DNA from: Planctomycetota bacterium
GTDB taxonomy: Bacteria > Planctomycetota > GCA-002687715 > DRQF01
Reading direction: 5' to 3'
Assembly: GCA_047639315.1 (NCBI GenBank)
Contig: JBLINQ010000001.1
Location: forward strand, 20,010-84,009
DNA length: 64,000 bases
Shown here: one piece after another, positions 1-34,614 of the stretch
How positions within the stretch are numbered: the first letter of the stretch is position 1
Layout: every line of letters starts with the position of its first letter
Notes under the pieces: generated by a model
The model's input: only the letters and a program-made list of their open reading frames with translations
What the model was told of the DNA's origin: nothing
Databases searched by the model: none
Program-made: the position numbers and the translations under genes

Positions 1-480
1 TTCAGGGAAAGGAGAACATCCCTCTGAGACAAGGATGACGGCAAAGAAGACAGCAAAAGCAATCTGCAATAAGAACTTGAGTCCTCGCGACATGCCGCCA
101 TCACTTGATCCATGCTTCACCTTCAAAAGATCATCGAGGGCCCCGATGCCTCCGAACCACAAGGTGGTCAAAAGCAACAGGCCAGTGGTGCCGCTGGATA
201 GATTGCAGAACATGAGCCCGCCAGCAGCAATGGCACCCACAATGAGGATGCCACCCATGGTTGGTGTCCCGGTTTTGCTCTTGGCAAAAAAAGCGTCGTA
301 GTTGCGAACCCGATCTCTCACGCCAGCTCGATAGAGGCGCGCTGCGGTTGTTCGACCAGCAAAAAAGACAAACAGGAATGACACAATGAATGCGCCAACA
401 CACAAGAGTAGGACCGGTGTGCCACCTAAGTGCCACCGCCCCATGTCCGAAAACATCTGGTCACAAATCCAAGGAATCAT
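1..480 (-). CDS. mraY: Phospho-N-acetylmuramoyl-pentapeptide transferase MraY, N-terminal ~160 aa. It is truncated at the window edge and absent from the ORF table because it has no in-window stop.
   Basis: I translated the reverse strand myself. The frame is open from the ATG at 480..478 to position 1 and reads MIPWICDQMFSDMGRWHLGGTPVLLLCVGAFIVSFLFVFFAGRTTAARLYRAGVRDRVRNYDAFFAKSKTGTPTMGGILIVGAIAAGGLMFCNLSSGTTGLLLLTTLWFGGIGALDDLLKVKHGSSDGGMSRGLKFLLQIAFAVFFAVILVSEGCSPFPE. The GTPTMGG and G.DD motifs are hallmarks of MraY. The ATG overlaps the TGA of the upstream fusion ORF (ATGA). Confidence 0.85.
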   Translation of the reverse strand, partial: MIPWICDQMFSDMGRWHLGGTPVLLLCVGAFIVSFLFVFFAGRTTAARLYRAGVRDRVRNYDAFFAKSKTGTPTMGGILIVGAIAAGGLMFCNLSSGTTGLLLLTTLWFGGIGALDDLLKVKHGSSDGGMSRGLKFLLQIAFAVFFAVILVSEGCSPFPE

Positions 481-3400
481 AAGGCATCATCCTGAATAGT
501 TGGAATGTCTCCTTGGAGACCAGAGCGAACCCGGCTCATTGTTTCCTTGAGCTCAAACGTAGGCGTAAAGGAATCGCAAGTAATAAGGATGTCGTCGAGT
601 CGTCGTCGAATAAGGTCGCGATCTTCGAGAATGCCACGCTTATAAAGGTCGTAGTAGGCACCAACAACAGCATGTCGAACTTGCCAGTTGGGGTGGTAGT
701 GCAAAGTCATGAGAATCTCGGCTGCTCGAGCATCCAGGGCCGCAGCTGTGAGGGCCTTCACGGCGGCCCGGGCGACTTCAAAATTCTTCTCAGTAACCAT
801 GCTCTTGAGGCGCCATTGTACCAGTCGCCTGACCGCCGGCGTTAGCTCTTTGGAGTAGGCTGCGATCGCGTCACAGGCAGCGGCTCTCACTTCAAAATAG
901 GAGTCACCCAAACCCGTCAACAGAGCGCGCTCGACATCAAGGTCAAGGGATTCAATTTGACGCAAACTGTGAATGGCATTTCTTCGAACGAAGCCTGGAT
1001 GCTCAAAGTCACCACCTAACATGCGATGAAGCAGTGGCGCTGGCGTCCTTGACTGAACGATCTTGACCAGATTGTATTTGAGTGAACGAATCTTGAGGAT
1101 GCCAACGAGTTTGACGCCGATGTTTCTTTGCTTCCAGTTTTCCTTGCCAAGGAAATCACGCACACGACCAGTCAAGTTTGCGTCACGCACACTGTCCGGT
1201 TGACTCAACGCAACTTTAAGAAGTTGTTCAGGACGCAAGCAGTAAACATTGAGTGGTGTCTTCTTTTGATCGCTTGGTGGGGCTTGTGGAATCTGCCGGC
1301 GCAAGCGTGCCAAGACGTCGTCCATCTCCGGTGATTTCAGAGCCCACGCCAGAACCAGATAGGATACACATCCAGTCGTCGCAGGGAGTGAGAAGACAAA
1401 CAGTCGAGAAAGGAAGGTCGGCAGAGCATCAAAGCCCTGAACTGTTTGAAGGGTAAGGAACGAGATGAAGGCAGCGCCCAGCGAAGCAATGATGGCGCGT
1501 TTTCCAGAAGGCAGAATGTCTTCGAATTCGAAACCACCGCCATCGGCCATCATATTCCGTCTCATATGCCAAACGCGAAACGCGCCGTTGGCCAAGAAGG
1601 CGATGGAGGTGCCAAGAGCAACTCCTGCGATTGACATTCCCATCAAGACAAAGCTAATTGAAAGAGTGATGTTCAATACGATGGCGCACAAGTTGATGAC
1701 GACTGCTTGCCCCAACTCAAGTCGCGCGGCGTAGAATCGACCCATCAGCCCTTGCAGCCCCCAACCAACCAATCCGACGGCGTAACAGGAAAGGGCGGTG
1801 GCGACAGCGATTGAGTCTTTCGATTGAAAGACGCCATAGTTCAGCAAAAGATCGACGGTCGGACGAGCCAAAACAATCATCAATGCAGAGGTCGGCAACA
1901 AGAGGAAGAGATTCCAGTTTACGCCTGTTGTCACGATGCGGCGGCACGCGGCCTGGTCGCGAGTCGCGAAGTTCTCGGCGTACTCTTTGAGTGCCACGGT
2001 GTTGATCGATTGTGAAATCAAAGCAAACGGCAACTGAAACAAGAGCAAGCCATAGTATAAGGCGGAAACGCTGCCCGTCGCCAACATGGAGACGATGGCC
2101 AAGTCTACAACAGATCCGATCTTCGTGATTGTTACGTCGGCGACGATCTTTGGTGCCGTCGAGCGGACCTTGCGCATGCCCGGCTCGTTGACGTTTAGGG
2201 CCGGTGCGAAACTCAAACCCGTTCGCCGGCGAAAGCTCTTTGATAAAAGGGGTGGCAGATGCATGAGCACTTGACCGAAGCCACCCAAGATGAGCCCAAC
2301 ACCCATGCCGACTATGCCAAGTGTCGGGTAGAGAAGGGCGCCACACATGATGCCAATGCTATACATAACCGACGCGTATGCAGGTGCCGAGAAGCGGCCG
2401 AAGGCTTTGAGGACAGCGCCAAAGACACTCGCGATTGTGATGAGTGTTAAGTAAGGCAACATCAAGCGCGTCAACTTGACGGCGTCGGGCAAGAACCCCT
2501 TTGCAGCGAAGCCAGGGACCATCACTGGCAACCAATATGGCACTGTAAATGCAGCCGCGACGACGAGCAATAAAGTGATGACTGTTGATGAGGTTAGGAC
2601 TGTACGGAAAAGCCGAATCGCTTCTTTCTTCCGACCCCCTTGATAGAGCATGACAAAGGTTGGCAAGAAAGCGCTGTCGACGGCGTTCTCGGCGAAAATT
2701 CGGCGGAAGAGATTGGACGCCGTGAGGCAAGCCACAATAATATCCATGACTCGCCCAGCGCCGAATGTCGACGCCAAAACAACCTCGCGACCTAGGCCAA
2801 AGATGCGCGACAAGAGTGTGCCGAACCCGGTGACCAAGACACTCGCGAGAACGCGTGAGTTTCTTGGGCTTTGCTCCCGTGTTTCGATGCGCGCCTGGAA
2901 GGTGTATTTGTTCGCACCAATCTCAAGGGCTTGCCCCGCCTGCAGGGGAGTCGATCGATCGATCACTTTGCCGTTGATCGCCACGCGCCCCTTACGGGGA
3001 AGAATGGAGTATGTGGTATTCTCTCGAGAGCTGCCACTGCGTCGCACGAGTGCGCGGTCTCCTTGGCCCCTGTCTCGCAAGCGGATGTCACTGCTGCCAG
3101 CATGGCCAATTGTCGTAACCGGAAAAAAGAGCTCTTCGGCTTCGCCGTCCTCCGCCGTTAATTCGCCAACAAGTACTTGTACGCTGGTCGACATGACTCG
3201 GCGTTTGTTGTGAGCTAAGCTCCGAACCAACGTGGCATTTTGCGGGCCGGCATTAGGGATCGCGAAATTGTGTGCCGATCGAGCCATGTCACTTAGCTTG
3301 ACTTCGTCGCGCAGGAGCTCGTTGATTTTTCTCGCCAACTGGTCGCCGTGTACGCGAGTGATCGGGCCTTCTTTAGCTTCGTAGATTTCTTCAAAGATCA

Positions 3401-4376
3401 CTTCAGCCGAACCATGCTCTTTCATGGTGAGGGCATTGACGAGTTGATGATTATCGACACCATCGCTTTTTGGAATCAGAAGGGCGGGCTTGCCGAGAGT
3501 GGCGAGTTCCATCAGGACGCCTGCGCCAGCACGAGCAACGACAAGGTCGCTGGCCGCATAGGCGTCTTCGATCTGGTCAAAGTAGCGGCGCAAGATGTAT
3601 CGATTTCGACTGGACTCTGCGACAGGAGCCGACTTCAGGCGATCGTTGGTGTCTCCCCAAGCATCGTAGTAGCCCGTAGCAGTAAGCCCGGTACTGTGAA
3701 TGACTGTCGTCTCTTCATTGTCCAAGAGTCGTGACAGACCCTCGACGGTTGCTCGATTGATCGAGCGGGCGCCCATGGAGCCACCAAGGATAAATGCCAC
3801 CTTGGCGTCTTTAGGAATACGAAGGCGGTCTCTTGCTGCCGCGGGATCACCGGCAGCAATTCTCTGACGAACGGGATAGCCGGTGAGCTCGGTTTTCTTA
3901 GCCGGAAACCACGGCAAGCTCTCTTCAAAGCTCACACCGATTTTGGTGGCAAATCGAGCCAGGAAGAGATTAGCTTTTCCTGGCCGCGCATTCTGTTCGT
4001 GCAAGAAAATGGGCCGCCGAAGAATTGCAGCGGCCAAAACGGTTGGCACCGAAACGTAACCACCGGTGGCAATGACAACGTGCGGTCGAAAGCGGATCAT
4101 TGTGATGAGGGATTGAACCAGGCCGACTGCCAAGCCAAAGATAAAACGAGCGAATGCACTTGGACGGCGTGGAGAGGAAAAGGGGCGCGATTCGATTCCC
4201 TTGAAGGCCAGTTTGGCCTTCTCAGCCAACTGTTTTTCGGGACCCCGATTGGTCCCCAAGTAAAGAATCCGGCAATCGGGCTCTTCGTCTTGAATCTCAC
4301 GGACAATGGCTAAGTTTGGGACCACGTGCCCACCGGTACCTCCACCGGAAAACAAATAGCGCCTGGGTTCCGACAA
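477..4376 (-). CDS. murG-murJ: Single 1299-aa ORF fusing MurG (UDP-GlcNAc:lipid I GlcNAc transferase, ~aa 1-380), an FHA-like domain (~aa 400-480), a MurJ/MviN lipid II flippase domain (~aa 500-1030) and a C-terminal HEAT/PBS-lyase-like repeat domain. It uses a TTG start.
   Basis: The N-terminus reads YLFSGGGTGGHVVP...HEQNARPG...AFILGGSMGAR...ASDLVVARAGAGVLMELATLGKPALLIP, which matches the MurG GT28 signature. The mid segment TTIGHAGSSDIRLRD...VAINGKVIDRSTPLQAGQALEIGANKYTF is FHA-like. The next segment reads VLVTGFGTLLSRIFGLGREVVLASTFGAGRVMD...NLFRRIFAENAVDSAFLPTF followed by many TM helices, which matches the MurJ N-terminal signature. The tail carries HEAT-like repeats (VRAAACDAIAAY, VARAAVKALTAAA, QVRHAVVGAYY). 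The ORF table shows one uninterrupted frame. Confidence 0.85.
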   Translation of the reverse strand: MSEPRRYLFSGGGTGGHVVPNLAIVREIQDEEPDCRILYLGTNRGPEKQLAEKAKLAFKGIESRPFSSPRRPSAFARFIFGLAVGLVQSLITMIRFRPHVVIATGGYVSVPTVLAAAILRRPIFLHEQNARPGKANLFLARFATKIGVSFEESLPWFPAKKTELTGYPVRQRIAAGDPAAARDRLRIPKDAKVAFILGGSMGARSINRATVEGLSRLLDNEETTVIHSTGLTATGYYDAWGDTNDRLKSAPVAESSRNRYILRRYFDQIEDAYAASDLVVARAGAGVLMELATLGKPALLIPKSDGVDNHQLVNALTMKEHGSAEVIFEEIYEAKEGPITRVHGDQLARKINELLRDEVKLSDMARSAHNFAIPNAGPQNATLVRSLAHNKRRVMSTSVQVLVGELTAEDGEAEELFFPVTTIGHAGSSDIRLRDRGQGDRALVRRSGSSRENTTYSILPRKGRVAINGKVIDRSTPLQAGQALEIGANKYTFQARIETREQSPRNSRVLASVLVTGFGTLLSRIFGLGREVVLASTFGAGRVMDIIVACLTASNLFRRIFAENAVDSAFLPTFVMLYQGGRKKEAIRLFRTVLTSSTVITLLLVVAAAFTVPYWLPVMVPGFAAKGFLPDAVKLTRLMLPYLTLITIASVFGAVLKAFGRFSAPAYASVMYSIGIMCGALLYPTLGIVGMGVGLILGGFGQVLMHLPPLLSKSFRRRTGLSFAPALNVNEPGMRKVRSTAPKIVADVTITKIGSVVDLAIVSMLATGSVSALYYGLLLFQLPFALISQSINTVALKEYAENFATRDQAACRRIVTTGVNWNLFLLLPTSALMIVLARPTVDLLLNYGVFQSKDSIAVATALSCYAVGLVGWGLQGLMGRFYAARLELGQAVVINLCAIVLNITLSISFVLMGMSIAGVALGTSIAFLANGAFRVWHMRRNMMADGGGFEFEDILPSGKRAIIASLGAAFISFLTLQTVQGFDALPTFLSRLFVFSLPATTGCVSYLVLAWALKSPEMDDVLARLRRQIPQAPPSDQKKTPLNVYCLRPEQLLKVALSQPDSVRDANLTGRVRDFLGKENWKQRNIGVKLVGILKIRSLKYNLVKIVQSRTPAPLLHRMLGGDFEHPGFVRRNAIHSLRQIESLDLDVERALLTGLGDSYFEVRAAACDAIAAYSKELTPAVRRLVQWRLKSMVTEKNFEVARAAVKALTAAALDARAAEILMTLHYHPNWQVRHAVVGAYYDLYKRGILEDRDLIRRRLDDILITCDSFTPTFELKETMSRVRSGLQGDIPTIQDDAL

Positions 4377-4899
4377 GGAACTCCCCCCGGGTTTTAATGC
4401 TCATAGATCGAACATCGACTCTCACTCCCGGCCCACAGCGTCCGAGGGAATTCGATGAATTCTAAGAGCTCCTCATGTTGGGTAGTTCTCTCCCTAGTTA
4501 ACTACCCCACATACAGAACTTTAGACCAAGGGGAGGGCATTGGGATGACCTCTTTGTGCTGCAGTGAGTTCGCATCTTTTGACTTTTTTAGACCCCGGAT
4601 TCGGGTGGCGGCCGTTTTCATTGATGGTTACCGAAATGGCTCACTCGCGCCGGGCCAATTCGGTCAACCAAAAATACGATTCAATGTTGCTGCGAGGGCC
4701 CGGCGTGATGACGCTGGGCCCTTTCTTTGTTTCGTCCTTTCCTCAAGCCTCCCGCCTTTGCAACGCCGGTCCAATGAATTACGATCTGGACCCCTGGGAA
4801 AGGGGTGTTGGCGCCAAATTGTGTGCCACGACTTAGTGATTGCCCCAACTGACGAGTGGGGCACAAGGTCCGGGAATTTAGCTAAATTGAGGGCATTGA

Positions 4900-6576
4900 A
4901 TGGCAGTCTCATATTCACTTCGCATATTCCTTGTGGGCATGTTCGCTGTCTTTTCGTTCCCGAATCGCGCATCAGCTCAATTTTCGAACCTTTATCAAGT
5001 GCAAGGACAGACCCAGAATGAGTCATTCGGCACTTCGATGAGCCGAGTCGGCGATGTGAATGGGGATGGGGTGTCAGATTTTATTGTTGGGTCTCCTTAT
5101 TTCGCCAACGGCCAGGGTGTCGTGGGCCGAGCCCAGGTGCTTTCTGGTATCGATGGAAACTTGCTCTACGCCAGGGTTGGGGCTGATGCCAACGCTCAAT
5201 TCGGCTACGCCGTGAGTGGTGTTGGCGACACAAATGGCGATGGCACGCCAGACTTTGCCGTTGGCGCCAGGTTCGCAAATGGCCTTGAGGCGTCATCTGG
5301 GCTTGTTCTTGTCTATTCTGGGGCCGATGGCGCGCAGCTCCTTTCTCTGCCTGGATCCAGCAGTTTTGATGGGTTTGGCTCTGCCATTGGCCGTGCGAGA
5401 GATGTCAATGGTGATGGTTTTGACGACATCATTGTCGGCGCACCGAAGTCTGACCTGGGGCTGCCGGATGGCGGTTGTATCGCGGTTCATTCTGGCTTCG
5501 ACGGCGCTCAGATTTATCTGTTGTTTGGCCAATCCGACGGGGCTGAATTCGGTTCATCTGTTGCTGGGATAGGCGACGCGAACGACGATGGTTTTGATGA
5601 TTTCCTTGTTGGTGCGCCTTTCTCTGAAATGAACGGAGTTCAGGTCGGGCAAGTACACCTTTTTTCCGGTGCGACTGGCGTTGTTGCGCGATCCATGAGC
5701 GGAGAAGCTTTTGGCGACCGCTTTGGCGCAACATTGGCAAATGCCGGGAATGTCGACCGCGACGGGTTTCATGACTTCGTTGTTGGCGCCAAAGGCAGCG
5801 ATTTGGGTGGGCTGAATGCGGGTCGTGTGCAGGTGTTTTCCGGATCGACAGGGCTCCTGCTTCATGATCTTGTAGGTGGTGCAATTGGTCAACTCATGGG
5901 CACGGCAGTTGATGGGGCGGGAGATGTCGATCGCGATGGTTTTGACGATATTATCGTTGGCGCCATTGGCGATGGGGCGAATGGCTCTCTTGCTGGCCTT
6001 GCAACGGTTCACAGTGGCCGCGATGGCGCTACGCTCGAGACGTTCTTGGGCACGGGACCCGGCGCGTTCCTGGGTCAGGCCGTTTGTGGCTTGGGGGACG
6101 TGAATGGCGACGGGTTCTTCGATGTTGCCATGGGTGCCCCTGGGGCTGACGTCCCTGCGGGAAATGCAGGGAGTATTCGTGTCCACGTTGCTCGAACCAC
6201 GCCCTTCTTTGTTTATGAGGACATGCCAGGCACGACGCGACTTTATTTGGAATGGACTCCAAACGGCGGTGATCCCAATTCCCTATTGGGAACCATGAGT
6301 TGTAGTGAAGCCACTCCAGGTGGCCTTGGTCAATATGCTGTCAGCCTTTCGCCAGCCAGTTTCCTTGTGTTCGGAACGCCCGTCTTAATTGCCAATGACG
6401 CCCTCAACTTGATCGACTCTGGGACCCTTGGCTTCGGCTTTTCGGGCGAAATCGCCGTGCCCAATATTAGTCGGGTAGCGCCCCAATTGGCCGGACTTTT
6501 TGTATTCGTTCAATTCTTTGAAAGAATGCCGTTTGCGTCCAGCTCCAACGGGGTAGCGCTTCTTTTGACGCCCTAA
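4900..6576 (+). CDS. Secreted FG-GAP/VCBS repeat beta-propeller protein (integrin-alpha-like repeats), paralog 1.
   Basis: There is an N-terminal signal peptide (MAVSYSLRIFLVGMFAVFSFPNRASAQ). Repeats such as GDVNGDGVSDFIVGSP, GDTNGDGTPDFAVGA and GDVDRDGFDDIIVGA recur seven or more times. The C-terminus carries the conserved motif VFVQFFERMPFASSSNGVALLL shared with the next two genes. Confidence 0.85.
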   Translation: MAVSYSLRIFLVGMFAVFSFPNRASAQFSNLYQVQGQTQNESFGTSMSRVGDVNGDGVSDFIVGSPYFANGQGVVGRAQVLSGIDGNLLYARVGADANAQFGYAVSGVGDTNGDGTPDFAVGARFANGLEASSGLVLVYSGADGAQLLSLPGSSSFDGFGSAIGRARDVNGDGFDDIIVGAPKSDLGLPDGGCIAVHSGFDGAQIYLLFGQSDGAEFGSSVAGIGDANDDGFDDFLVGAPFSEMNGVQVGQVHLFSGATGVVARSMSGEAFGDRFGATLANAGNVDRDGFHDFVVGAKGSDLGGLNAGRVQVFSGSTGLLLHDLVGGAIGQLMGTAVDGAGDVDRDGFDDIIVGAIGDGANGSLAGLATVHSGRDGATLETFLGTGPGAFLGQAVCGLGDVNGDGFFDVAMGAPGADVPAGNAGSIRVHVARTTPFFVYEDMPGTTRLYLEWTPNGGDPNSLLGTMSCSEATPGGLGQYAVSLSPASFLVFGTPVLIANDALNLIDSGTLGFGFSGEIAVPNISRVAPQLAGLFVFVQFFERMPFASSSNGVALLLTP

Positions 6577-7068
6577 CAACGACACCATTTGCCGCCCGGA
6601 ATGGGCAATAGTCGCTCAGATCCAATAGACTCCACTGGCGCCCGTATTATCGGGTGAATCCCCTACGGGTTCATGGTGATTTTTCTTGCCAAGGGCCCGC
6701 AAGATCCGCGACAGCCGGGAAATTACCCAAATCCGATCGCCATAAGTCTATGACTTGTCGGATATTTATCCTGATTTACCCGCATAATCACCCACGCGAA
6801 AAAAACCCGCAAAACCATAAGCCATACAAACGCTATATCTTAGGAGAAATTATTAACACCCAGGGCGATTTGGGCCCATAAGCCGCCCGGAAAAGGCTAT
6901 GGCAATTAATCCGGATCCCCTACAATTCCCGGTGTTCAGGCAGCGCGGATGCAATTAACATTTGGCTGCTTGTCGAGACGCCGCTTGTCCCTCGCACCGG
7001 GAGGCAGATCTCGAATACGACGTTAGACGTCGAACCTGACAACCAACAGACTGATTGGAGTCTATTCT

Positions 7069-9024
7069 ATGATGATAAATAAGTTACCCATCTGCTTGAT
7101 GCTCGTTGCTGCAAGCATGGCAATTGCGCCAATCGCTTCAGTAGGCGCACAAACAATGGTGCCCGTGCCCGCCCAAGAAGGCAGCGATATTATCTCTAAG
7201 GGAGGTAGTGCTCCTGCCACGACTAATCCAGGAAGTGCTTATGGGAGCGCAATCTGCAATGCTGGCGATTTCGACGGCGACGGGGTCAATGACCTTGTTG
7301 TTGGTTCCCGCGGCGAAGACACAGGCGCAACGGATGCCGGCATGATCGAATTGATCTCCGGTGCTGATCAGTCCGTCCTGTTTAGTTTTATGGGTACCAA
7401 CGCATTCGATCAATTTGGCTACTCAGTCCATTGCGCAGGCGACCTCAACGGTGACGGATTTGCTGATGTCATCATCGGTGCTCCTTTCGCTGATCCAGGC
7501 AACCCTAACGCAGGCCAAATCGTTGTCATTAATGGCGGCGACGGTGGTGTGACGGTTCAAGAAGGCGAGCTCTATCGGGTTAACGGTCCTGAAGCTTTTG
7601 CGCTCTTCGGCGAAAAAGTACGTCGTATCGGCGATGTCAATGGCGATACAATCGGCGACCTCTTGGTCAGCGCCCGAGGCTTCAATGGTGGCCGCGGTGC
7701 GGTTCACCTTCTTAGTGGCGCCGACGGTGCCGAACTTCGTGTCATCGAAGGTGAAAATGTCGGTGATTTCTTTGGCGCATCCATCGCAAGTATCCCTGAT
7801 CTTACCGGTGATGGCATCGATGACATTCTTGTTGGTGCAATCGGCGACGATGATGGTGGCAATAGCAGAGGCAGCTTGACAGTCCTTGATTCCGATCTAA
7901 TCGGGTCTGCTGCGACAGCAAGTGTCCTTTCTTCAGCTGTCACTTTTGCCAAGATCAACGGCACTGCTGACTTTGAACAATACGGAACAAACGTCAGCTG
8001 CGCTGGTGATTACAACAACGACGGCGTCTTCGACATCGTTGTTGGTAACCCTTCAGCATCGGATGTTGGTAAAGCATTTTGTGGGGAAGTCAAAGTCCTC
8101 AGTGGACGCGACATCGACACGACCGTCACCGAACTCTTTGCACTCAAAGGCATCTCTGCTAACGATCAATTCGGAATCGCAGTGAGTGATGCTGGAGATG
8201 TTAACGGCGACGGCTTCGACGACATTCTCGCTGGAACTTACAAAACCACTGGAGCCTTTAATGCTGGTTCAGGTGCCGCAAATGTTATCTTTGGGAGCCC
8301 TATGGGCGCACTTGGAACACAAACCTTGCAGGGCACATCAGACTTCGACTTCTACGGTTCAGCGCTGACTTCCATGGGTGACCTGGACGGCGATGGTTTT
8401 TCAGACTTCGCTGTTGGCGCCTACGCTGATCACACAACAAATGGTGATGACACTGGTTCGGTTAGAATGTACAAAGCATTCAACTCTGGTGGAATGAATC
8501 CAACTCTGCCTTTCCCAGTTCGCGTCTATCACTCCGAGAATCGCCGCGATCTTGAGACCATCCAAATGCGATGGGAGGCTGATACCACAGCACAGTCGAC
8601 ACCTAATCCTGATCCATATGCGACCACGGGAAAAATCTTCATTAAGACTCCTGAGCTCCAGGTCGGTCCAGCTGCTGTTGGTCCACAGTTCGTGTACTTT
8701 GTTTCCAGCACGCCGGTTGATTTTGTTCAACCAGCCATGGGAATGTTCCCAGAACTGCTGCTTTTGATTTCGAATGATCCAACCCACATCATTCAAGACC
8801 GGACAGACTTCAATGACCCGTTGAATCAGTTCTTCTTTAACCCGTTGGGCGAAGTGAGGTTCAACTTTGACCGTGAAAACGCTCAAGGCAACATTGCTCC
8901 TATTCTGCCAAGTAATGGCTTGTTGGCTGGTCTAACGGTCTACTTCCAGATCTTCCAGCTTCCTGATCCTGTGAAGATGTACCCATTCCGCTGGTCAAAC
9001 GGTATCGCCATGACTCTTGAGTAA
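7069..9024 (+). CDS. Secreted FG-GAP/VCBS repeat beta-propeller protein, paralog 2.
   Basis: It has a signal peptide and repeated FG-GAP motifs (GDFDGDGVNDLVVGS, GDLNGDGFADVIIGAP, GDVNGDGFDDILAG). The C-terminal motif is VYFQIFQLPDPVKMYPFRWSNGIAMTL. The stop was checked at 9022-9024. Confidence 0.85.
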   Translation: MMINKLPICLMLVAASMAIAPIASVGAQTMVPVPAQEGSDIISKGGSAPATTNPGSAYGSAICNAGDFDGDGVNDLVVGSRGEDTGATDAGMIELISGADQSVLFSFMGTNAFDQFGYSVHCAGDLNGDGFADVIIGAPFADPGNPNAGQIVVINGGDGGVTVQEGELYRVNGPEAFALFGEKVRRIGDVNGDTIGDLLVSARGFNGGRGAVHLLSGADGAELRVIEGENVGDFFGASIASIPDLTGDGIDDILVGAIGDDDGGNSRGSLTVLDSDLIGSAATASVLSSAVTFAKINGTADFEQYGTNVSCAGDYNNDGVFDIVVGNPSASDVGKAFCGEVKVLSGRDIDTTVTELFALKGISANDQFGIAVSDAGDVNGDGFDDILAGTYKTTGAFNAGSGAANVIFGSPMGALGTQTLQGTSDFDFYGSALTSMGDLDGDGFSDFAVGAYADHTTNGDDTGSVRMYKAFNSGGMNPTLPFPVRVYHSENRRDLETIQMRWEADTTAQSTPNPDPYATTGKIFIKTPELQVGPAAVGPQFVYFVSSTPVDFVQPAMGMFPELLLLISNDPTHIIQDRTDFNDPLNQFFFNPLGEVRFNFDRENAQGNIAPILPSNGLLAGLTVYFQIFQLPDPVKMYPFRWSNGIAMTLE

Positions 9025-9060
9025 TCCCAAGTCATAGTCGATCAGTCCTAATCACGAAAA

Positions 9061-9093
9061 GCCCTCTTGCGAAAGCGAGAGGGCTTTTTTTTG
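9061..9093 (+). terminator. Rho-independent terminator after FG-GAP paralog 2.
   Basis: The stem AGCCCTCT/AGAGGGCT has a 10-nt loop and is followed by a run of 8 T, about 37 nt after the stop codon. Confidence 0.7.
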
Positions 9094-9483
9094 GCCTCTT
9101 TGCCGCCGCGCAGTGGGCCAGCAAAGCCAAATACTCGACTAAAATGCACCATGAGCAGGTCCCACCGAGTTCGGCCCATGAGATTAAAATCGAGTCGTCG
9201 TAGAATCTAAACCCGACCACGAGAGTACCCGGATCTCGCAAGGCAACGCACTTCCCCAAGTTGCGTCAAACCCACCCCCCAGGTCTCGTCAAGTCACTTT
9301 TTGGGTGTTCAAAAAAAACTTCAGGGCGCCGGCTCGATTCCCTACTGTTCGCCTGTTCGAGCAGCGAAGTGCCTCCCACAGAATCGCTGCAAGAAATCAA
9401 AGTCGGCTTCGATTGTGAGAAGCAGGCAGCGGTATCGCTCAGCGATCAATGTGAAGTCGAATGAAAACGAACGGAGCCCACCT

Positions 9484-11190
9484 ATGATGATGAAACACCT
9501 TAAGAACCTCGCGATAGTCGGATCCCTCTTTGCCGCATCAGCGAGCCTTTCTCTTGGCCAAGCTACTACGACATATACCGTTGCCTATGACCTGGATGGT
9601 TCGGCAGCAAACCAGTCTTTTGGAAACTCCGTTTGCAACGCCGGTGACGTGAACGGCGACGGTATCAATGATCTTGTTGTTGGTGCGCGTGGCGATGCAA
9701 CGAACGGTGCGAATGCTGGAAGCGTTCGGGTCTACTCTGGCGCCAATGGCACCTTACTTCATACCTTCATGGGCAACGCCTCATTCGATCAATTTGGATA
9801 TTCCGTCAGCTGTGCTGGCGATGTCAATGGCGATGGATTTGATGATGTCGTTGTCGGTGCACCCTTTGCCGATGCTGGCGGCGTTAACGCTGGCAATGCG
9901 AAAATATTGTCAGGTATCGACGGAACCCTACTCCACAATTTCGATGGATCAGGGTCCTTTACTCTCTTAGGTGAGTCTGTCAGTGGTGCTGGCGATGTCA
10001 ACAACGACGGTTTTGATGATGTAGTCGTCGGTATTCGTGGCGACGCCACTAACGGCCTTGGAGCTGGAGCCGCCCGAGTTTACTCCGGTGTTGATGGCAC
10101 GATCCTCTATACTTTCCTTGGCGACAATGCTGGTGACGGCTTGGGTAACTCAGTTAGTGGAGCAGGTGATGCCAACGGTGATGGCTACGATGATATCGTT
10201 GTCGGAGCTACTGGCGACGACAATAACGGCAACAGCTCTGGCGCACTTCGCGTCTACTCTGGCTTTGACGGCAACGTGCTCTTCACTCGTTTTGGCGACT
10301 CTGATTTTTGCCAACTTGGTTCATCAGTGAGCAATGCTGGTGATGTCAATCGTGATGGTTTCGCTGATGTTGTTACTGGCGCACCATATGCCAACGCCAA
10401 TGGACCCACCGCTGGTTTGGTCAGGGTCTACTCTGGTCTTGATGGATCAACCTTGCATTCATTGACTGGTGCCATGGCCAATGATCAATTCGGATTATCT
10501 GTGAGCGGCGCAGGCGACACCAACGGTGATGGACATGATGATATTATTGTCGGCGCTTACCGCGACGGAACAACTCTTTCGAATTCTGGGCACGCTCGGG
10601 TGATTTCTGGTGTGGACGGCTCGACCTTGGCCGACATCGCCGGTGATTCAGATCTGGATTATTTCGGTCAATCTGTCAGTAGTGCTGGTGATATTAATGG
10701 TGATGGATTTGCCGATGTTTTGGTTGGTGCCTACGCTGCGGATGCGGACACCGCTTTGGACGCTGGTCGCGTTGTTCTCTTATTAGCGCCAACACTCCCG
10801 GTTCTCAATTACTACTCCAACCTTTCACCTCTCAATACGCTTGAACTCGACTGGATCCCAGATGGCAATGATGTCAATTCAGTGACCGGAACAATTGAAA
10901 CAACAGGTGCAACACCAAACGCTAACGGCTTCTACTTTGTCAGCGTCTTGGCCGACGACTTGGACGTCTTCGGTATCGTCAATTTCCTTATCACTGGTGG
11001 CGCCGCATATGAGGTGGTCTACGGTGGCTTCCTCTTTGATGCGGCAGGAACTTTGACGGTTCCAGGCATTGTGCGTTCATCGCCAGGGCTTGCTGGCCAG
11101 AATGTCTACATCCAACACTTTGAGACAGCCCCAGTGATTCGCGCTTCCAACGGCCTTAGGGTGACCTTGACCGACATCGTCAATGGTTAG
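9484..11190 (+). CDS. Secreted FG-GAP/VCBS repeat beta-propeller protein, paralog 3. The true start is probably the ATG at 9484, not the ORF-table start at 9301.
   Basis: MMMKHLKNLAIVGSLFAASASLSLGQA is a signal peptide preceded by a GGAG ribosome-binding site. There are at least 8 FG-GAP repeats (GDVNGDGINDLVVGA, GDVNGDGFDDVVVGAP, GDANGDGYDDIVVGA). The C-terminal motif is VYIQHFETAPVIRASNGLRVTL. Confidence 0.85.
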   Translation: MMMKHLKNLAIVGSLFAASASLSLGQATTTYTVAYDLDGSAANQSFGNSVCNAGDVNGDGINDLVVGARGDATNGANAGSVRVYSGANGTLLHTFMGNASFDQFGYSVSCAGDVNGDGFDDVVVGAPFADAGGVNAGNAKILSGIDGTLLHNFDGSGSFTLLGESVSGAGDVNNDGFDDVVVGIRGDATNGLGAGAARVYSGVDGTILYTFLGDNAGDGLGNSVSGAGDANGDGYDDIVVGATGDDNNGNSSGALRVYSGFDGNVLFTRFGDSDFCQLGSSVSNAGDVNRDGFADVVTGAPYANANGPTAGLVRVYSGLDGSTLHSLTGAMANDQFGLSVSGAGDTNGDGHDDIIVGAYRDGTTLSNSGHARVISGVDGSTLADIAGDSDLDYFGQSVSSAGDINGDGFADVLVGAYAADADTALDAGRVVLLLAPTLPVLNYYSNLSPLNTLELDWIPDGNDVNSVTGTIETTGATPNANGFYFVSVLADDLDVFGIVNFLITGGAAYEVVYGGFLFDAAGTLTVPGIVRSSPGLAGQNVYIQHFETAPVIRASNGLRVTLTDIVNG

Positions 11191-25949: not shown

Positions 25950-27626
25950 CTACTCAGCCAAGGCTGGGGTAGCTTTCTTCGGCGAGGTGAGCGGTTGAAG
26001 CTCGATGGACTTCCAGCCAACGTATCCGTAACCCCAGCAGAAGAGGCCAAGGAAAGGAACAGCTAACCAAAGGCCTTGCATGACAGCGTAGCCGGTGACG
26101 AACGCAAAGTAGACCGAGAACGCAAGCTCCAAGGCTGGCAGCATAGATTTGGAAGCGGCGTAGCGCTTCTTCTTCCAGCCTTCACCCTTTTCGTTGGCAT
26201 CGACTTGGTACTTCGGCGTGCGGACAAATGGGCTTTCTTGCCCACGAAGCGCTTCGATTACGGCCTTAGCCTGATTCAACGCCATGCCGATACCGAGGCC
26301 CATCAGCAAAGGCATGTAGATCGCCTTCTTGTACCACTTTTCATCGATTTGGCGCTCAGCGTAAGCATAGAAGCTTAAGATGCTGACCGTGGCACCAACA
26401 AAGAGGCTGACGTCGAAGATTGTCGCCCATATTCCAGTCAAGATTTGGCAGCGGTAATACAGTGCTGGGAACATCAAGAGGGACAACGCGATCATGAACA
26501 AGTAAGTGATGTTGTTGGTCAGATGGAAAGTACATTCGATCTTCACTTTAAGCGGCTGCTTGCTTTTCCAAATTGGAACGAGCATGTGCAGCATGGCTTG
26601 AATGAAGCCCTTGGCCCAGCGATGTTGCTGAGTCTTGTAGCCATTCATGTCGACAGGCAATTCAGCCGGGACACCTTGGTCGACCAAGTAAACACCACGC
26701 CAGCCACTGAGTTGAGCTCGGTAAGAAAGATCTAAATCTTCAACCAGCGTGCGGTGTGACCAGCCACCGGACTTGTCGATGCAAGCGCGGCGCCAGGTTC
26801 CGGCTGTGCCTGAGAAGCTAAAGAAACGTCCTGAGCGCTGGCGGCCAGTGTGCTCAAGCACAAAGTGACCGTTCAAATAAAGCGCCTGAAGCTTCGTCAG
26901 TAGGGAGTGATTTTCGTTGATGTGGGCCCAGCGAGCCTGCACGAAGCCAACTTCTGGGTCGGTGTAGTGGTGAACTTGGCGACGTAGGAAGTCAGCGTGC
27001 GGCACAAAGTCGGCATCAAACATGCAGATGATTTCGCCACGGGCCGTCTTTAAACCGTTTTCGAGTGCGCCAGCTTTATAGCCACTGCGGTCGGTCCGAT
27101 GGATGACTTCAATATCGAAGCCTTCATTTTTCCAGCGCGCTGCGGCACGACGACTGATTGCCACGGTTTCGTCCGTCGAATCGTCAAGCACCTGCACTTG
27201 GAATCGATCCTTTGGGTAGTCCATCTTGCAGACCGCATCGATGATTCGATTGGCGACATACATTTCGTTGAAGATGGCAAGTTGAACGGTGACGATCGGC
27301 AACTCTTCGTCGCCGTACATCCGCTTCGGTGTGGGCACATTCTTCTTGTTTGAAGAATAGAACCACATGATGAAATAGCGATGAACGCCGAAAAGCCACA
27401 ACAAGAAAAGTGTGACGGCATAGAGTCCGAGAACGAGAGGCTTGAACCACCCTGCGTCCACAGGCGCAGCAACTGCACCTTTCAGCAAACTATCCGTAAA
27501 AACTGCAAAACCGTGTCCAAACATCGGTTGATCCTCAAATGCCAGGGAACTGTCGAGCCCGCATTGTTGATGAAATGCACCATGAATCGAAGGTCCTACA
27601 ATCAGACCGATTCGAATTCTTGTCAT
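25950..27626 (-). CDS. Processive family-2 glycosyltransferase (cellulose-synthase/CslA-like beta-glycan synthase), multi-TM, with no PilZ domain.
   Basis: QVLDDSTDET and DADF (D, D, DXD motifs) plus QQHRWAKG (QxxRW) are present, flanked by N- and C-terminal TM helices. Confidence 0.75.
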   Translation of the reverse strand: MTRIRIGLIVGPSIHGAFHQQCGLDSSLAFEDQPMFGHGFAVFTDSLLKGAVAAPVDAGWFKPLVLGLYAVTLFLLWLFGVHRYFIMWFYSSNKKNVPTPKRMYGDEELPIVTVQLAIFNEMYVANRIIDAVCKMDYPKDRFQVQVLDDSTDETVAISRRAAARWKNEGFDIEVIHRTDRSGYKAGALENGLKTARGEIICMFDADFVPHADFLRRQVHHYTDPEVGFVQARWAHINENHSLLTKLQALYLNGHFVLEHTGRQRSGRFFSFSGTAGTWRRACIDKSGGWSHRTLVEDLDLSYRAQLSGWRGVYLVDQGVPAELPVDMNGYKTQQHRWAKGFIQAMLHMLVPIWKSKQPLKVKIECTFHLTNNITYLFMIALSLLMFPALYYRCQILTGIWATIFDVSLFVGATVSILSFYAYAERQIDEKWYKKAIYMPLLMGLGIGMALNQAKAVIEALRGQESPFVRTPKYQVDANEKGEGWKKKRYAASKSMLPALELAFSVYFAFVTGYAVMQGLWLAVPFLGLFCWGYGYVGWKSIELQPLTSPKKATPALAE

Positions 27627-27861
27627 CTCCCGCAGGCAGCTTGCGCTACCTGGGCGGGTACTTTGGCGCCATCTTGTTCACGACCTAATCGCAGCACACG
27701 GGCGCATCTTGCGCCCCGGCATACTGCTCACATGTAAACAGGAGGTGAACGTCGGATGATAGGGAGGGATAAGAACAGGTTCAAGGACGGCGTAATTGGC
27801 GGCGGGCTGTGAAGTTACGACTTACGGCCACCAAGGGCATGGGGCCGTAAGTCGTTTTCTA

Positions 27862-28527
27862 TTAACGCTTTGCGATGGGTGCTTTTTTGTGTCGCCGAGG
27901 TTTGAGTGCCGCTGCGAGAGTTGCGGCAATACGCGAAGAGGCGTATTCACCAAACAATCGTGGAGAAATCAGCACTTTCTCGTGGTCGAGGAGTGACCCC
28001 TCTTCCCACTTTTCGGTGTCATAGTAGTGATGAACATCTTGCTCAATCATCCTGGAGGACGCATCGAGGAGCAGGTCGGTGGCCCAAGGGACTTGACCTG
28101 TTCGGCAATCGAGCAGAGTGAGGCGAAGCCCCACAACAATCTGGGGGAATACTTGATAATGGGTCACAATCCCGTGAATCACGCCTTCAGCACCGAAGCG
28201 CCGACTCAACGTGATCAAGTCTTCTGTCTGGTAGGTACCTTGGCGTCGCGTCGAATCGAAATCGGTATCTGCTAGGTCATTTTGGGCGACCGGCAAGAGT
28301 TCGAACAAGTGCTTGGCCGTAATGGCACGCAAAAGGCTTGTTTCCAAGTTATCGACCGGGGCATGGCCCTTGATCTCTGTTCGCAGTGGCATCATCACCA
28401 CGCGCCGGAGACCGCCGACCGATTGGGCTTCGGCGTGGTAGGGAAATGCTCCTGGGTCCGAGACTGGCGTGTTTACGCAGCCGGTCAAGCAAACAAGGAG
28501 ACAGAGAACAACGAGTGAGGCCCTCAT
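27862..28527 (-). CDS. Lipoprotein, hypothetical.
   Basis: MRASLVVLCLLVCLTGC contains the lipobox LTGC. Confidence 0.55.
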   Translation of the reverse strand: MRASLVVLCLLVCLTGCVNTPVSDPGAFPYHAEAQSVGGLRRVVMMPLRTEIKGHAPVDNLETSLLRAITAKHLFELLPVAQNDLADTDFDSTRRQGTYQTEDLITLSRRFGAEGVIHGIVTHYQVFPQIVVGLRLTLLDCRTGQVPWATDLLLDASSRMIEQDVHHYYDTEKWEEGSLLDHEKVLISPRLFGEYASSRIAATLAAALKPRRHKKAPIAKR

Positions 28528-29063
28528 TGACCGTCTCCTTTGGTCAGGTCGCGAATCTTCATATCTGCCACCATCTGTTGATAGTGAACAGAATCCAATT
28601 GAGCGCGAAGCAAACGCTCTTTCAACTTCTTCTCGCGATCGGCCGAGCTGGCGAGAGTTGCCTCATACTCCTCGATCATGGTGGCCAGAGTTGACTCGCT
28701 CGACTGTGCTTCCTTGCGAATCTTGACGGCAGCAGTACGCTCCTCGTCAGCGGCTTTCAGTTTTCTATTTAACTCAAAGACCTGGTGCTCAAGGCGATCG
28801 ATCTTACTGAGATATTGCGTGTCGGCTTTTCGTTCGTCCAAGTCTGGAACTTGAACATCCCGGTTCGATGTGGCGCTAATTTCGCGTCGAGGTTTGCCGC
28901 CATCAGGGATCTCGTTTTTGAGATCGTCACGAACCGATTGGCAACCGCCCAGAAGCAAAAGGCTGGCGATCAGCGCGACCGACAAAAGACTATATTTGTT
29001 TTCAATCACGATGCATTCTCCTGACTTGGGTAAACACACTCGACAAAGGTCGTTTGGCCACAA
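28524..29063 (-). CDS. Lipoprotein with coiled-coil region, hypothetical.
   Basis: LLSVALIASLLLLGGCQS contains the lipobox LGGC. The remaining ~120 aa are heptad-rich and helical. The listed start is TTG and the true start may lie further downstream. Confidence 0.5.
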   Translation of the reverse strand: MWPNDLCRVCLPKSGECIVIENKYSLLSVALIASLLLLGGCQSVRDDLKNEIPDGGKPRREISATSNRDVQVPDLDERKADTQYLSKIDRLEHQVFELNRKLKAADEERTAAVKIRKEAQSSESTLATMIEEYEATLASSADREKKLKERLLRAQLDSVHYQQMVADMKIRDLTKGDGQ

Positions 29064-29230
29064 CTACAGAGAATCTCGATCGCTTCAATGATATCTTGAT
29101 CGTTGCGATGAAGGGTAATCTCGCTGGTGTCGTTGCCACGATGGGAGCCTCTCTTCCCTGTCGAATTCGACGAGGAAGCGGGTAAACCCACAACAGCGCC
29201 AATATTAGATGCCTTGATGATATTACTCAT
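29006..29230 (-). CDS. Small hypothetical ORF (74 aa) translationally coupled to fliA.
   Basis: Its start overlaps the fliA stop by 8 nt. There is no recognisable motif. It competes with the alternative-frame ORF 29002..29202. Confidence 0.3.
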   Translation of the reverse strand: MSNIIKASNIGAVVGLPASSSNSTGKRGSHRGNDTSEITLHRNDQDIIEAIEILCSCGQTTFVECVYPSQENAS

Positions 29231-29984: not shown

Positions 29985-30313
29985 GTGCGAACTCCATCAT
30001 TTGCTTCTGGGGCGACCATTCTCTTGCGCCAGTCGTGAAGGACAAAAGTGAATAGAAAGCGGGTAGCCACGCTGACAAAAACCCACATCACGACACCTGC
30101 GAGGAGGCTGCGCGTCACTGCCGTTGTCGCGGGGACACCGGCAAGTCCGGCCACCCCAAAGACAATTGCAGCGGTCGGAATCGAAACCCCGGCGCCCGCA
30201 AGTTTCCCTAAGGCTTTGGCCCCAGAGCCCTTGGGTCGGACTGTGTCTGGTTTTTTGACCTCCGCATCGCCGACTTCGGCTGGGAGGCTTTCTGGTTCTT
30301 TGTTCACTCTCAT
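29981..30313 (-). CDS. Small two-TM membrane protein (110 aa) lying between flhA and fliA.
   Basis: Two hydrophobic helices are present (IPTAAIVFGVAGLAGV and LLAGVVMWVFVSVATRFLFTFVL). It overlaps the fliA start by 4 nt. No known family is recognised. Confidence 0.5.
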   Translation of the reverse strand: MRVNKEPESLPAEVGDAEVKKPDTVRPKGSGAKALGKLAGAGVSIPTAAIVFGVAGLAGVPATTAVTRSLLAGVVMWVFVSVATRFLFTFVLHDWRKRMVAPEANDGVRT

Positions 30314-30356
30314 TCCCTATCTCACAGGGCTCTCTTCGGGACTTCTATCGGCATTT

Positions 30357-32453: not shown

Positions 32454-32483
32454 CTCTATTCACCCGTTCATGGTTGCTGGTCT

Positions 32484-33557: not shown

Positions 33558-33559
33558 GA

Positions 33560-34321: not shown

Positions 34322-34332
34322 GGCTCAACCTT

Positions 34333-34602: not shown

Positions 34603-34614
34603 TTGAAATTCCTC

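Follow-up and report, generated by a model that had tools for sequence, protein, structure and literature searches.

A single open reading frame (ORF) in the 64-kb stretch of Planctomycetota DNA analyzed here (the window) encodes, on one polypeptide, a MurG domain, an FHA-fold domain, a complete MurJ domain, and a HEAT tail, and its stop codon overlaps the start of mraY. We think it probable that the two genes together make up a compact module in which MraY, MurG, and MurJ carry out the membrane steps of making and exporting lipid II, with the FHA and HEAT domains as structural adaptors. The four-part composition agrees with the initial annotation. All domain matches fall on a single frame, and the Pfam models for MurG (Glyco_transf_28 and Glyco_tran_28_C) and MurJ were both recovered in it.

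The fusion ORF occupies positions 477 to 4376 on the minus strand and encodes 1,299 amino acids, as defined from the ORF list, Pfam and NCBIfam models, and homologues. Its architecture, MurG-FHA-MurJ-HEAT, is referred to as type A; related proteins have the order MurJ-MurG-HEAT (type B) or MurG-HEAT (type C). The frame is uninterrupted and begins with a TTG codon, with an in-frame TGA 9 codons upstream and a likely ribosome-binding site, GGAG (4381 to 4384, minus strand), 4 nt upstream. The JGI gene call for this protein begins 17 residues later. The MurG/FHA junction lies at about 3188 to 3237 and the FHA/MurJ junction at 2852 to 2871; these values replace earlier estimates of ~3200 to 3400 and ~2900 to 3000, while the outer coordinates first given for the gene hold. 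Across family loci, 14 to 24 amino acids separate MurG from FHA, 7 to 16 separate FHA from MurJ, and 11 to 25 separate MurJ from HEAT.

The MurG domain (GT28 fold; residues 1 to 380; positions 3237 to 4376, minus strand) was assigned with Pfam and NCBIfam models and by alignment to the E. coli and P. aeruginosa MurG structures. Glyco_transf_28 (PF03033) matched residues 8 to 147 (6e-33), Glyco_tran_28_C (PF04101) matched residues 194 to 367 (4e-23), and residues 8 to 375 align to 3S2U and 1F0K in a two-domain GT-B fold. The motifs quoted in the initial annotation were all found (GGGTGGH at residues 11 to 17, HEQN at 126 to 129, GGSMGAR at 198 to 204, and, in the MurJ part, NLFRRIFAEN from residue 555), and the fusion also carries the MurG motifs RAGA..E and HQ..NA. 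In 111 family sequences, the catalytic and nucleotide-sugar motifs (GGxGGH loop, HEQN, GGSxGAR, RxGA...E helix, and HQ..NA) are near-invariant. The murG model TIGR01133 aligned over positions 3 to 348 of 353 with 228.9 bits, under its equivalog cutoff of 250.25; the MurG parts of relatives scored 213 to 228 bits and are under the cutoff in types A, B, and C. With its catalytic motifs intact, the MurG part is predicted to transfer GlcNAc from UDP-GlcNAc to lipid I.

The MurJ domain (residues ~509 to 1022; positions 1311 to 2852, minus strand) has 14 transmembrane (TM) segments and was delimited with Pfam, NCBIfam, and alignment. Its Pfam model matched residues 534 to 960 (2e-76), and the murJ model TIGR01695 matched over positions 2 to 505 of 506, TM13 and TM14 included, with 267.9 bits against a cutoff of 235.55, which bears out the original description of a complete MurJ. 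Since about 14 hydrophobic segments accompany a full-length match, both termini should face one side of the membrane; the proposal that MurG, FHA, and HEAT share one compartment is therefore topologically coherent, and the permuted type B order, which places MurG after TM14, supports it independently. The essential cavity residues R18, R24, D39, and R52 of E. coli MurJ align to R524, R530, D545, and R558, which are conserved in 102 to 119 of 120 sequences. Three of the four E. coli arginines considered (R18, R24, and R52) are thus kept; the fourth position, the essential R270 (R255 in T. africanus), is lost, being L778 in the window and E, I, V, T, or L in the family column. One helical turn past this position, 51 of the 120 sequences have an Arg, and the window protein has a Gln. 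Members of the cationic triad can relocate in bona fide MurJ proteins, for example, S. aureus MurJ (bioRxiv 10.64898/2026.06.21.733627). This part of the fusion is a full-length MurJ, for which lipid II flipping is the predicted activity.

The C-terminal tail (residues ~1045 to 1280; positions 537 to 1244, minus strand) is a HEAT-like alpha-solenoid, as judged from Pfam, alignment, AlphaFold, and Foldseek. HEAT_2 (PF13646) matched residues 1151 to 1238 (3e-8; 34.3 bits against a cutoff of 27.7), and HEAT (PF02985) scored 27.6 bits against 23.5, so the HEAT-repeat tail seen at the outset is above threshold in Pfam as well as an alpha-solenoid in predicted fold. The AlphaFold model (pLDDT 91.8) has 15 helices, and its Foldseek matches were alphaRep/HEAT, importin-alpha, and CpcE/F. 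Conserved blocks (W..RN.G.KL.G, GF.RRNA, and D.Y.EVR) and family-wide invariant charged and aromatic positions occur along the tail. HEAT-tailed MurG proteins form a large unnamed family with more than 1,000 database matches, and the domain that defines this family is the HEAT tail, not FHA.

The fusion was sought in related genomes. The same architecture is found in over 100 protein clusters and at about 35 independent loci from metagenome-assembled genomes (MAGs); the records carry the labels Planctomycetota, Aminicenantes/Acidobacteriota, Chrysiogenales, and others. MurG and MurJ are both present in each of the best 120 homologues, and HEAT in most of them, at identities down to 30%. Retrieval with a HEAT-tail probe (trimmed alignment) gave 48 MAG loci, comprising 35 of type A (truncated contigs counted), 10 of type C, 1 of type B, 1 with separate murJ, murG-HEAT, and mraY genes, and 1 of no determined type. 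A second type B locus (L005) was obtained apart from this set, and the type B domain order was confirmed by Pfam. MurJ is thus joined in at least two ways (types A and B) and is elsewhere a separate gene. In neighbor-joining trees, type A is one clade and type B falls inside type C; a purD-purE-yciO context is common to types B and C. When a cultured host was sought with a type C query, the names among the best 120 matches were all MAGs. The cultured Planctopirus limnophila appears to have neither the fusion nor the MurG-HEAT/MraY module; its murJ (Plim_0195) and murG (Plim_0205) stand apart as individual genes, and the annotation of the gene before mraY (Plim_1131) reads "cell cycle protein."

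Directly downstream of the fusion, its TGA stop shares bases with the mraY ATG in an ATGA overlap (477 to 480, minus strand), an arrangement that suggests translational coupling. The first 160 codons of mraY (1 to 480, minus strand), with the motif KTGTPTMGG, are present before the gene runs off the window; this fragment matched MraY_sig1 (20.9 bits; cutoff, 20.1) and the family MraY HMM (3e-43). The initial annotation gave no strand for the fusion and overlooked mraY, which starts at 480. Full-length MraY orthologues beside the fusions of relatives scored 271 to 304 bits with TIGR00445 (cutoff, 192). The gap to mraY is ≤30 nt in 47 of 49 loci, with an overlap in 27, and the same 4-nt overlap is found in most related loci; the Planctomycetota loci L010 and L011 have no downstream mraY. 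Two type C loci, L016 and L023, have a gene for a MOP-family flippase after mraY, so the trio of synthase, MraY, and flippase recurs even without a fusion. The constant core is MurG, the HEAT tail, and an adjacent MraY.

We propose the following arrangement. MurG and MurJ would be joined via a short, rigid FHA-fold domain, with the HEAT solenoid at the end of the protein, and its translation would be coupled to that of the overlapping downstream gene for MraY, the lipid I synthase; the two genes would then cover all three membrane steps in the making and export of peptidoglycan precursors, MraY, then MurG, then MurJ. Lipid II enters MurJ by a portal between TM1 and TM8 that is fed by the TM13-14 groove (PMC6465408). 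Whether MurG is tethered to the N terminus of TM1, as in the window, or to the C terminus of TM14, as in type B, the MurG-HEAT unit would sit beside this portal, and new lipid II could pass from MurG straight to the flippase. The HEAT tail would serve as a docking scaffold, with MraY as its likeliest partner because the tail is always C-terminal and mraY is the near-universal next gene. Substrate channelling, which was part of the original proposal, is a reasonable inference; a fusion alone does not prove it, since fusions of non-consecutive Mur enzymes exist (PMC10214165).

It may be that the module is accessory rather than housekeeping. According to this explanation, which we consider plausible if somewhat short of probable, the genomes keep a dcw MraY and MurG and a separate MurJ, and the HEAT-tailed set is a specialized paralogous module for lipid II or a lipid II-like molecule, used for conditional or spatially distinct wall synthesis or for a modified precursor or related envelope polymer. 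It overlaps the arrangement proposed above and differs mainly in physiological role. Consistent with it, the fusion gene is not within a dcw cluster in the window or at the related loci examined, the MurG scores fall short of the equivalog cutoff in each of the three types, and the R270 position of MurJ is lost. Type C is frequent among MAGs with the labels Syntrophobacteraceae, Myxococcales, and Gemmatimonadales, groups that normally carry complete dcw clusters, and at L016 and L023 the genes that come next encode a Polysacc_synt flippase and NosD-like beta-helix proteins. However, the adjacent MraY of relatives and the MurJ domain pass their peptidoglycan equivalog cutoffs, and the UDP-GlcNAc-binding motifs of MurG are invariant. 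The second gene set is, moreover, presumed: no second copy of murG, mraY, or murJ was found either in the window or up to 10 kb from any locus.

We consider it unlikely that the fusion serves only 1:1 stoichiometry, colocalization, or stability, a reading in which lipid II is not handed over directly and FHA and HEAT are inert spacers. Natural chimeras of non-consecutive steps (MurG-MurC and MurC-Ddl, as well as MurD-FtsW) do provide a precedent, and stability and expression balance have been proposed for such proteins (PMC10214165). In the present family, however, the three activities that are joined or coupled follow one another in the pathway, and MurJ became attached on two independent occasions, in both cases at a terminus beside the substrate portal. 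The junctions are also short and conserved in length, and the invariant charged and aromatic positions of the HEAT tail are unexpected for an inert spacer.

The domain between MurG and MurJ (residues ~397 to 502; positions 2871 to 3188, minus strand) was identified by profile, AlphaFold, and Foldseek as an FHA-fold beta-sandwich without the canonical phosphothreonine (pThr)-binding residues. Pfam FHA gave no match at E ≤ 1 on the full protein. For the isolated segment, the best weak Pfam match was Yop-YscD_cpl (16.9 bits; threshold, 33.2), a model weakly matched by 12 of 42 family members, whereas PF00498 was matched by only 4 of 42 (best E, 0.0096). A profile of the 42 sequences was compared with PDB sequences, and its 15 best matches were all FHA domains (E, 1e-5 to 7e-3); the profile matches include the FHA domains of Ki-67 (1e-5), EmbR (2e-5), TB39.8 (1e-3), and kinesin-3, and also YukB, EssC, and YscD. 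The AlphaFold model of the segment is all-beta (pLDDT 90.2), and a Foldseek comparison of it with the PDB gave FHA domains for all of the 50 best matches (probability, 1.00). The pThr-contact columns were anchored on the EmbR alignment (R312, S326, H329, and N348) in 111 sequences. In the Arg column of "GR," N (46 sequences), T (17), S (13), H (9), and R (7) were counted, and the window protein has His; for SxxH, the Ser column is variable and the His column is mostly Arg, and at the Asn of the NG loop 105 of 111 sequences carry Gly. The domain first described as FHA-like is therefore real by profile and predicted fold, yet it falls below the Pfam FHA threshold and lacks the pThr-binding Arg, Ser, and Asn.

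These residues bear on the phospho-regulated machine that the initial annotation had proposed, in which the in-cis FHA domain reads pThr written by a Ser/Thr kinase, as FhaA binds phosphorylated MviN in mycobacteria. With the pThr-contacting Arg, Ser, and Asn not conserved, this model is unsupported, and we regard it as very improbable, even though the fold is truly FHA, the FhaA FHA domain (3po8 and 3oun), including its complex with the Rv3910 intracellular domain, is among the Foldseek matches, the FHA loops are conserved inside a close Planctomycetota subclade, and the genome encodes Ser/Thr kinases. Mycobacterial FhaA acts in trans and binds pThr on a pseudokinase domain fused to the MviN C terminus. 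The analogy is likewise unsupported here, in that Pfam detected no Pkinase domain in the fusion protein, the nearest Ser/Thr kinase gene (40717 to 43596) is 36 kb off, and the best weak Pfam match is a YscD-type cytoplasmic FHA-like model. Furthermore, type B and type C relatives do without an FHA domain. Lying 7 to 16 residues from TM1, the domain would instead be a phospho-independent structural adaptor, like the degenerate FHA domains of YscD and EssC.

An artifact in which a frameshift or a chimeric contig ran two or more adjacent genes together was rejected as having almost no likelihood: although locus L044, with its MurG part split over two frames, indicates that errors or pseudogenes occur in the family, the same unbroken architecture recurs with conserved junction lengths across over 100 non-redundant proteins and some 35 assemblies that are independent of one another and come from different studies and phyla.

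Taken further, the proposed arrangement leads to a broader and more tentative suggestion. HEAT-tailed MurG, coupled MraY, and a fused or adjacent flippase could constitute a widespread and so far unrecognized "lipid II assembly line." MraY, MurG, and MurJ would then form a physical complex, with HEAT and FHA as its scaffold, that carries lipid I to lipid II and on to the flippase portal and lets none of it out into the bulk membrane. The assembly line may be a second, dcw-independent system in several uncultured phyla, with the window protein as its most integrated form. The fusion bears on how lipid II passes from MurG to the flippase and on whether the membrane steps form a physical complex. 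The joining of MurJ twice at portal-flanking termini, together with near-universal mraY coupling, is "Rosetta stone" evidence that the three proteins work together. The fusion supports MurJ acting directly after MurG, and cryo-EM and hand-over biochemistry would find in it a ready-made stoichiometric target. Every fusion member found here is from a MAG; since the members all come from uncultured bacteria, this side of wall biology is invisible in model organisms.

Natural Mur chimeras surveyed previously are MurE-MurF, MurG-MurC, MurC-MurB, MurC-Ddl, MurD-FtsW, and MraY-MurG, and channelling, stoichiometry, and complex stabilization have been proposed to explain them (PMC10214165). The MurG-MurJ pair is absent from that list, in a survey that left out unidentified species (PMC10214165), and, as the initial annotation had supposed, no description of the architecture was found in the literature searched. 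By its domain content, the fusion belongs with this known kind, with which it shares two peptidoglycan-pathway activities in one conserved ORF. In contrast to the listed chimeras, it has a peripheral enzyme fused to a 14-TM transporter, includes FHA-fold and HEAT domains, occurs in two permuted orders, and is coupled to a third pathway gene, mraY. Compared with canonical MurG (E. coli 1F0K and P. aeruginosa 3S2U), the motifs and the two-domain GT-B layout are the same, but the window MurG is fused, does not reach the equivalog cutoff, contains an insertion in the C-terminal domain, and is encoded outside a dcw cluster. Likewise, the MurJ part resembles E. coli (6CC4) and T. africanus (5T77) MurJ in being full length, with 14 TM segments and conserved R18, R24, D39, R52, and G/A-E-G-A region, and differs in being fused and in having no Arg at the R270-aligned position.

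The MviN (Rv3910)/FhaA/PknB system has in common with the fusion a MurJ-family flippase and an FHA domain on the cytoplasmic side. Here, however, FHA is in cis, N-terminal to TM1, and without the pThr residues, and the C-terminal extension is a HEAT solenoid. A further likeness is to YscD/PrgH of type III and EssC/YukB of type VII secretion systems, in which a cytoplasmic FHA fold without a canonical pThr pocket directly precedes a TM helix and is thought to serve as a structural or protein-binding module. That likeness is one of fold and remote profile only, and the membrane partner differs, being a MOP flippase and not a secretion apparatus.

The ORF listing returned one uninterrupted 1299-aa frame, as the initial annotation had proposed; it lies on the minus strand (window 477..4376) and has a TTG start, a GGAG 4 nt 5′ of it, and an in-frame stop nine codons upstream. 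The public gene call for an identical protein (database cluster P0001, 1282 aa) begins 17 residues later (window 4326-4376, minus strand); since the GGGTGGH nucleotide-binding loop would be lost with this later start, the TTG at 4376 is the better call. Pfam placed Glyco_transf_28 at residues 8-147 (6e-33), Glyco_tran_28_C at residues 194-367 (4e-23), MurJ at residues 534-960 (2e-76), and HEAT_2 and HEAT, both over their gathering cutoffs, at residues 1151-1238. A hydropathy scan found ~14 hydrophobic segments from residue 510 to residue 1015. The NCBIfam murJ equivalog matched over its full length (positions 2-505 of 506; 267.9 bits versus a cutoff of 235.55), and NCBIfam murG did so slightly below its cutoff (228.9 versus 250.25). 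MurG and MurJ were thus recovered in one frame, the MurJ that had looked complete and the HEAT-like tail both held up, and all motifs quoted in the annotation were found. G+C content was uniform along the gene.

The MurG part aligned with the P. aeruginosa and E. coli MurG structures, all signature motifs being kept, and these motifs were near-invariant among 111 family members. The MurJ part aligned with E. coli-type MurJ structures over TM1-12, and the equivalents of R18, R24, D39, and R52 were conserved in 102 to 119 of 120 sequences. At the position aligned with the essential R270 of E. coli (in T. africanus, R255) the fusion has L778 (about window 2043-2045), and the family does not conserve this position; only 51 of 120 sequences have an Arg one turn of the helix further on. 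R270 belongs to a proposed substrate-binding triad (PMC6465408). The lost R270 is an unexplained deviation; since S. aureus MurJ takes one member of its triad from another helix (bioRxiv 10.64898/2026.06.21.733627), it does not disqualify the fusion MurJ.

The initial annotation had the four-domain fusion right and overlooked the gene directly downstream. Window 1-480 (minus strand) encodes an mraY N terminus with KTGTPTMGG; the gene continues beyond the window, and MraY_sig1 matched this part just over its cutoff. The mraY ATG overlaps the fusion TGA as ATGA. In related loci the downstream gene encodes a full MraY (TIGR00445, 271 to 304 bits versus an equivalog cutoff of 192). The fusion-to-mraY gap was ≤30 nt in 47 of 49 loci, with an overlap in 27, and only L010 and L011 had no mraY downstream. 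Judged from sequence, two overlapping genes encode the consecutive membrane steps of MraY, MurG, and MurJ.

Among 5.8 billion proteins searched, each of the 120 best matches had both Pfam domains, MurG and MurJ, and HEAT_2 was present in most. They were mostly 1190 to 1350 aa long, with identity down to 30%, and one 929-aa protein lacked the HEAT tail. Source labels included Planctomycetota, Acidobacteriota, Aminicenantes, Deltaproteobacteria, and Candidatus Lernaella; taxon labels here come from the MAG records and are in some cases plainly wrong (“archaeon,” “Patescibacteria,” “Clostridia”). With the HEAT tail as a probe specific to the family, and one genome per species, we obtained 48 loci, every one of them from a MAG. 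When family domain HMMs were applied to the ORFs of these loci, ~35 showed a continuous MurG-FHA-MurJ-HEAT order. The search of related genomes suggested earlier located the fusion both in loci and among database proteins. Junction lengths were conserved (MurG-FHA, 14 to 24 aa; FHA-MurJ, 7 to 16 aa; MurJ-HEAT, 11 to 25 aa), the first two junctions being short and rigid, and selection acts on the arrangement in several phyla. At one locus in a MAG labeled Chrysiogenales (L044:6811-10681), the MurG part is split over two frames, which marks a pseudogene or an assembly error; this frameshift inside MurG is absent from the window fusion.

The HEAT-tailed MurG family occurs in four arrangements. 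Type A (the window and ~35 loci) is MurG-FHA-MurJ-HEAT, then MraY; type B (clusters P0109-P0119, loci L005 and L019), confirmed by Pfam, is MurJ-MurG-HEAT, then MraY, without FHA; type C (10 loci) is MurG-HEAT of ~650 to 780 aa, then MraY; and type C′ (L025) has murJ, murG-HEAT, and mraY as separate consecutive genes. Type C was abundant (1132 matches at E ≤ 1e-30 to one member) and was the commonest single-stretch class in an exhaustive representative search. The invariant core is MurG, HEAT tail, and MraY, not MurG and MurJ. Neighbor-joining trees, which are rough (midpoint-rooted, without support values), gathered every type A sequence into a single clade that has a Planctomycetota and an Aminicenantes-like branch, and placed type B inside type C. 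A purD-purE-yciO context ~3 to 4 kb upstream is common to types B and C (L005, L021, and L054), which suggests that MurJ was added in place. Because of these placements and this common context, we conclude that MurJ was joined to a MurG-HEAT core on at least two occasions and in different positions.

Individual loci differed further. At L017:2496-3869 and L018:3868-5241, the MraY encoded beside the type C gene has a ~90-residue insertion, and the family HMM matches it in two separate segments. At L016 and L023, both of type C, mraY is followed by a gene for a different MOP-family flippase (Polysacc_synt) and then by one to three NosD-like beta-helix proteins (L016:11956-17543 and L023:9738-13578). 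After the type B gene and mraY, L005:16758-20721 encodes a polysaccharide deacetylase, an APH-family kinase, a sugar-phosphate nucleotidyltransferase, and a GH3 hydrolase, a set reminiscent of the AmgK/MurU/NagZ murein-recycling genes.

AlphaFold modeled the HEAT tail as a confident 15-helix solenoid (pLDDT 91.8) resembling generic prokaryotic HEAT-like scaffolds (alphaRep, importin-alpha, and CpcE/F). Some positions of its invariant blocks (W..RN.G.KL.G, GF.RRNA, and D.Y.EVR) are ordinary HEAT-consensus positions. Lipid II is thought to enter MurJ by a portal lying between the helices TM1 and TM8, into which a lipid-tail groove formed by TM13-14 leads (PMC6465408). The attachment points, the TM1 N terminus in type A and the TM14 C terminus in type B, would both adjoin this portal, and the even number of MurJ helices means that the FHA-MurJ insert would leave MurG and HEAT side by side at the cytoplasmic face, as in types B and C. 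For these two reasons, we propose a MurG-HEAT unit positioned at the portal, from which freshly made lipid II passes to the flippase. The FHA domain would serve as an adaptor, independent of phosphorylation and anchored on TM1, the gate helix, and the HEAT solenoid would dock MraY; the HEAT tail is always C-terminal and mraY follows directly, which would favor cotranslational assembly. That MurG and MurJ form one real fused protein with a role in making and exporting lipid II is very probable, while direct channeling and MraY docking come close to an even bet. The combined reading, a fused MurG-MurJ with hand-over and MraY docking, seems on balance probable.

An accessory paralogous module, partly compatible with this reading, is a possibility to be taken seriously, if a tentative one. 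It is favored by the location outside the dcw cluster, the MurG score below threshold, the missing R270, and the fact that type C is abundant in MAGs labeled with lineages that would normally carry dcw clusters. Three FG-GAP repeat proteins, two peptidases, RNase HII, and gyrA lie upstream of the fusion, and the peptidase/RNase HII/gyrA context is common to the window and one Planctomycetota relative. The 64-kb window contained neither a further murG or murJ nor any other gene for the cell wall. The FG-GAP proteins are large and consecutive (window 4900-11190, plus strand), divergent from the fusion; the related Planctomycetota locus L010 likewise has an upstream FG-GAP protein. Elsewhere, window 25950-36083 (minus strand) and 44299-45357 (plus strand) encode a GT2 glycosyltransferase, a sigma-70-family factor, a cluster for flagellar export (FlhA, FlhB, FliR, FliP, and FliO), and a FliM/FliN switch protein. 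Window 40717-43596 (plus strand) encodes a 959-aa protein in which a Ser/Thr kinase domain is joined to a C-terminal domain of the FGE-sulfatase (sulfatase-modifying-factor-like) type; it lies 36 kb away from the fusion, and no link between the two is evident. Window 53721-55349 (plus strand) encodes a protein whose HEAT_2 repeats precede von Willebrand factor A domains, unrelated to the MurG-associated tail. That fusion serves stoichiometry or stability only strikes us as rather unlikely.

Phospho-regulation through the FHA domain depends on what kind of domain this is. FHA models did not match the whole fusion protein even at E ≤ 1 (Pfam). Residues 395-505 are kept with few gaps throughout the family, which argues for a folded domain. 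A profile from 42 family segments of this region (alignment A1) was compared with PDB sequences, and all 15 best matches were FHA domains, including those of Ki-67 (1.1e-5), EmbR (2.3e-5), M. tuberculosis TB39.8 (1e-3), which we take to be FhaA, KIF1B, KIF13B, Dun1, and YukB. The AlphaFold model of the segment was confident and all-beta (pLDDT 90.2, pTM 0.80), and FHA domains made up all 50 of its best Foldseek matches in the PDB, among them 3oun, a complex of the FHA domain of FhaA with the intracellular part of Rv3910 (presumably the mycobacterial MviN). Because profile, model, and Foldseek matches agree, we regard the predicted FHA fold between MurG and MurJ as real, as first annotated. The best weak Pfam match of individual members was a YscD-type cytoplasmic FHA-like model (12 of 42), against which the window segment scored 16.9 bits (cutoff, 33.2). 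The conserved E415, L416, F418, D430, G463, N468-G469, and D482 look like core, not loop, positions.

The proposed role as a phospho-reader was not supported by comparison with the phosphothreonine-reader positions R312, S326, H329, and N348 of EmbR. In an HMM alignment anchored on EmbR, with counts among 111 sequences having a residue at the column, R312 (the Arg of “GR”) corresponds to H425 in the window protein (Arg in 7/111; mostly N, T, S, or H), S326 to Q438 in a variable column (R/I/A/G/V), H329 to R441 (Arg in 58 of 111), and N348 to G463 (Gly in 105/111). The segment is thus an FHA-fold domain without the residues of a phosphothreonine reader, and with these missing, phospho-regulation through it is very improbable. 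Given the same order in the MAG loci and best matches and the conserved junction lengths, we attach practically no weight to an artifact.

Full-text literature searches turned up no account of a MurG-MurJ fusion, a HEAT-tailed MurG, or an FHA-MurJ fusion, in keeping with the earlier remark that the architecture was not recognized as described. Automated pipelines label some members “MurJ/...MurG,” so the proteins are present in databases and so far uninterpreted. In P. limnophila, a cultured model planctomycete, murG and murJ are separate, with no sign of the module. The fusion offers comparative evidence for a MraY-MurG-MurJ complex and a natural construct for the study of lipid II hand-over; for specialists, it is notable rather than shocking. 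A survey of Mur fusions, which left out unidentified species, lists MurE-MurF, MurG-MurC, MurC-MurB, MurC-Ddl, MurD-FtsW, and MraY-MurG, and MurG-MurJ is absent from that list (PMC10214165). Enzymes and Mur fusions are thus known; what is new is the pairing of MurG with MurJ, together with both accessory domains, the permuted architectures, and the coupling to mraY.
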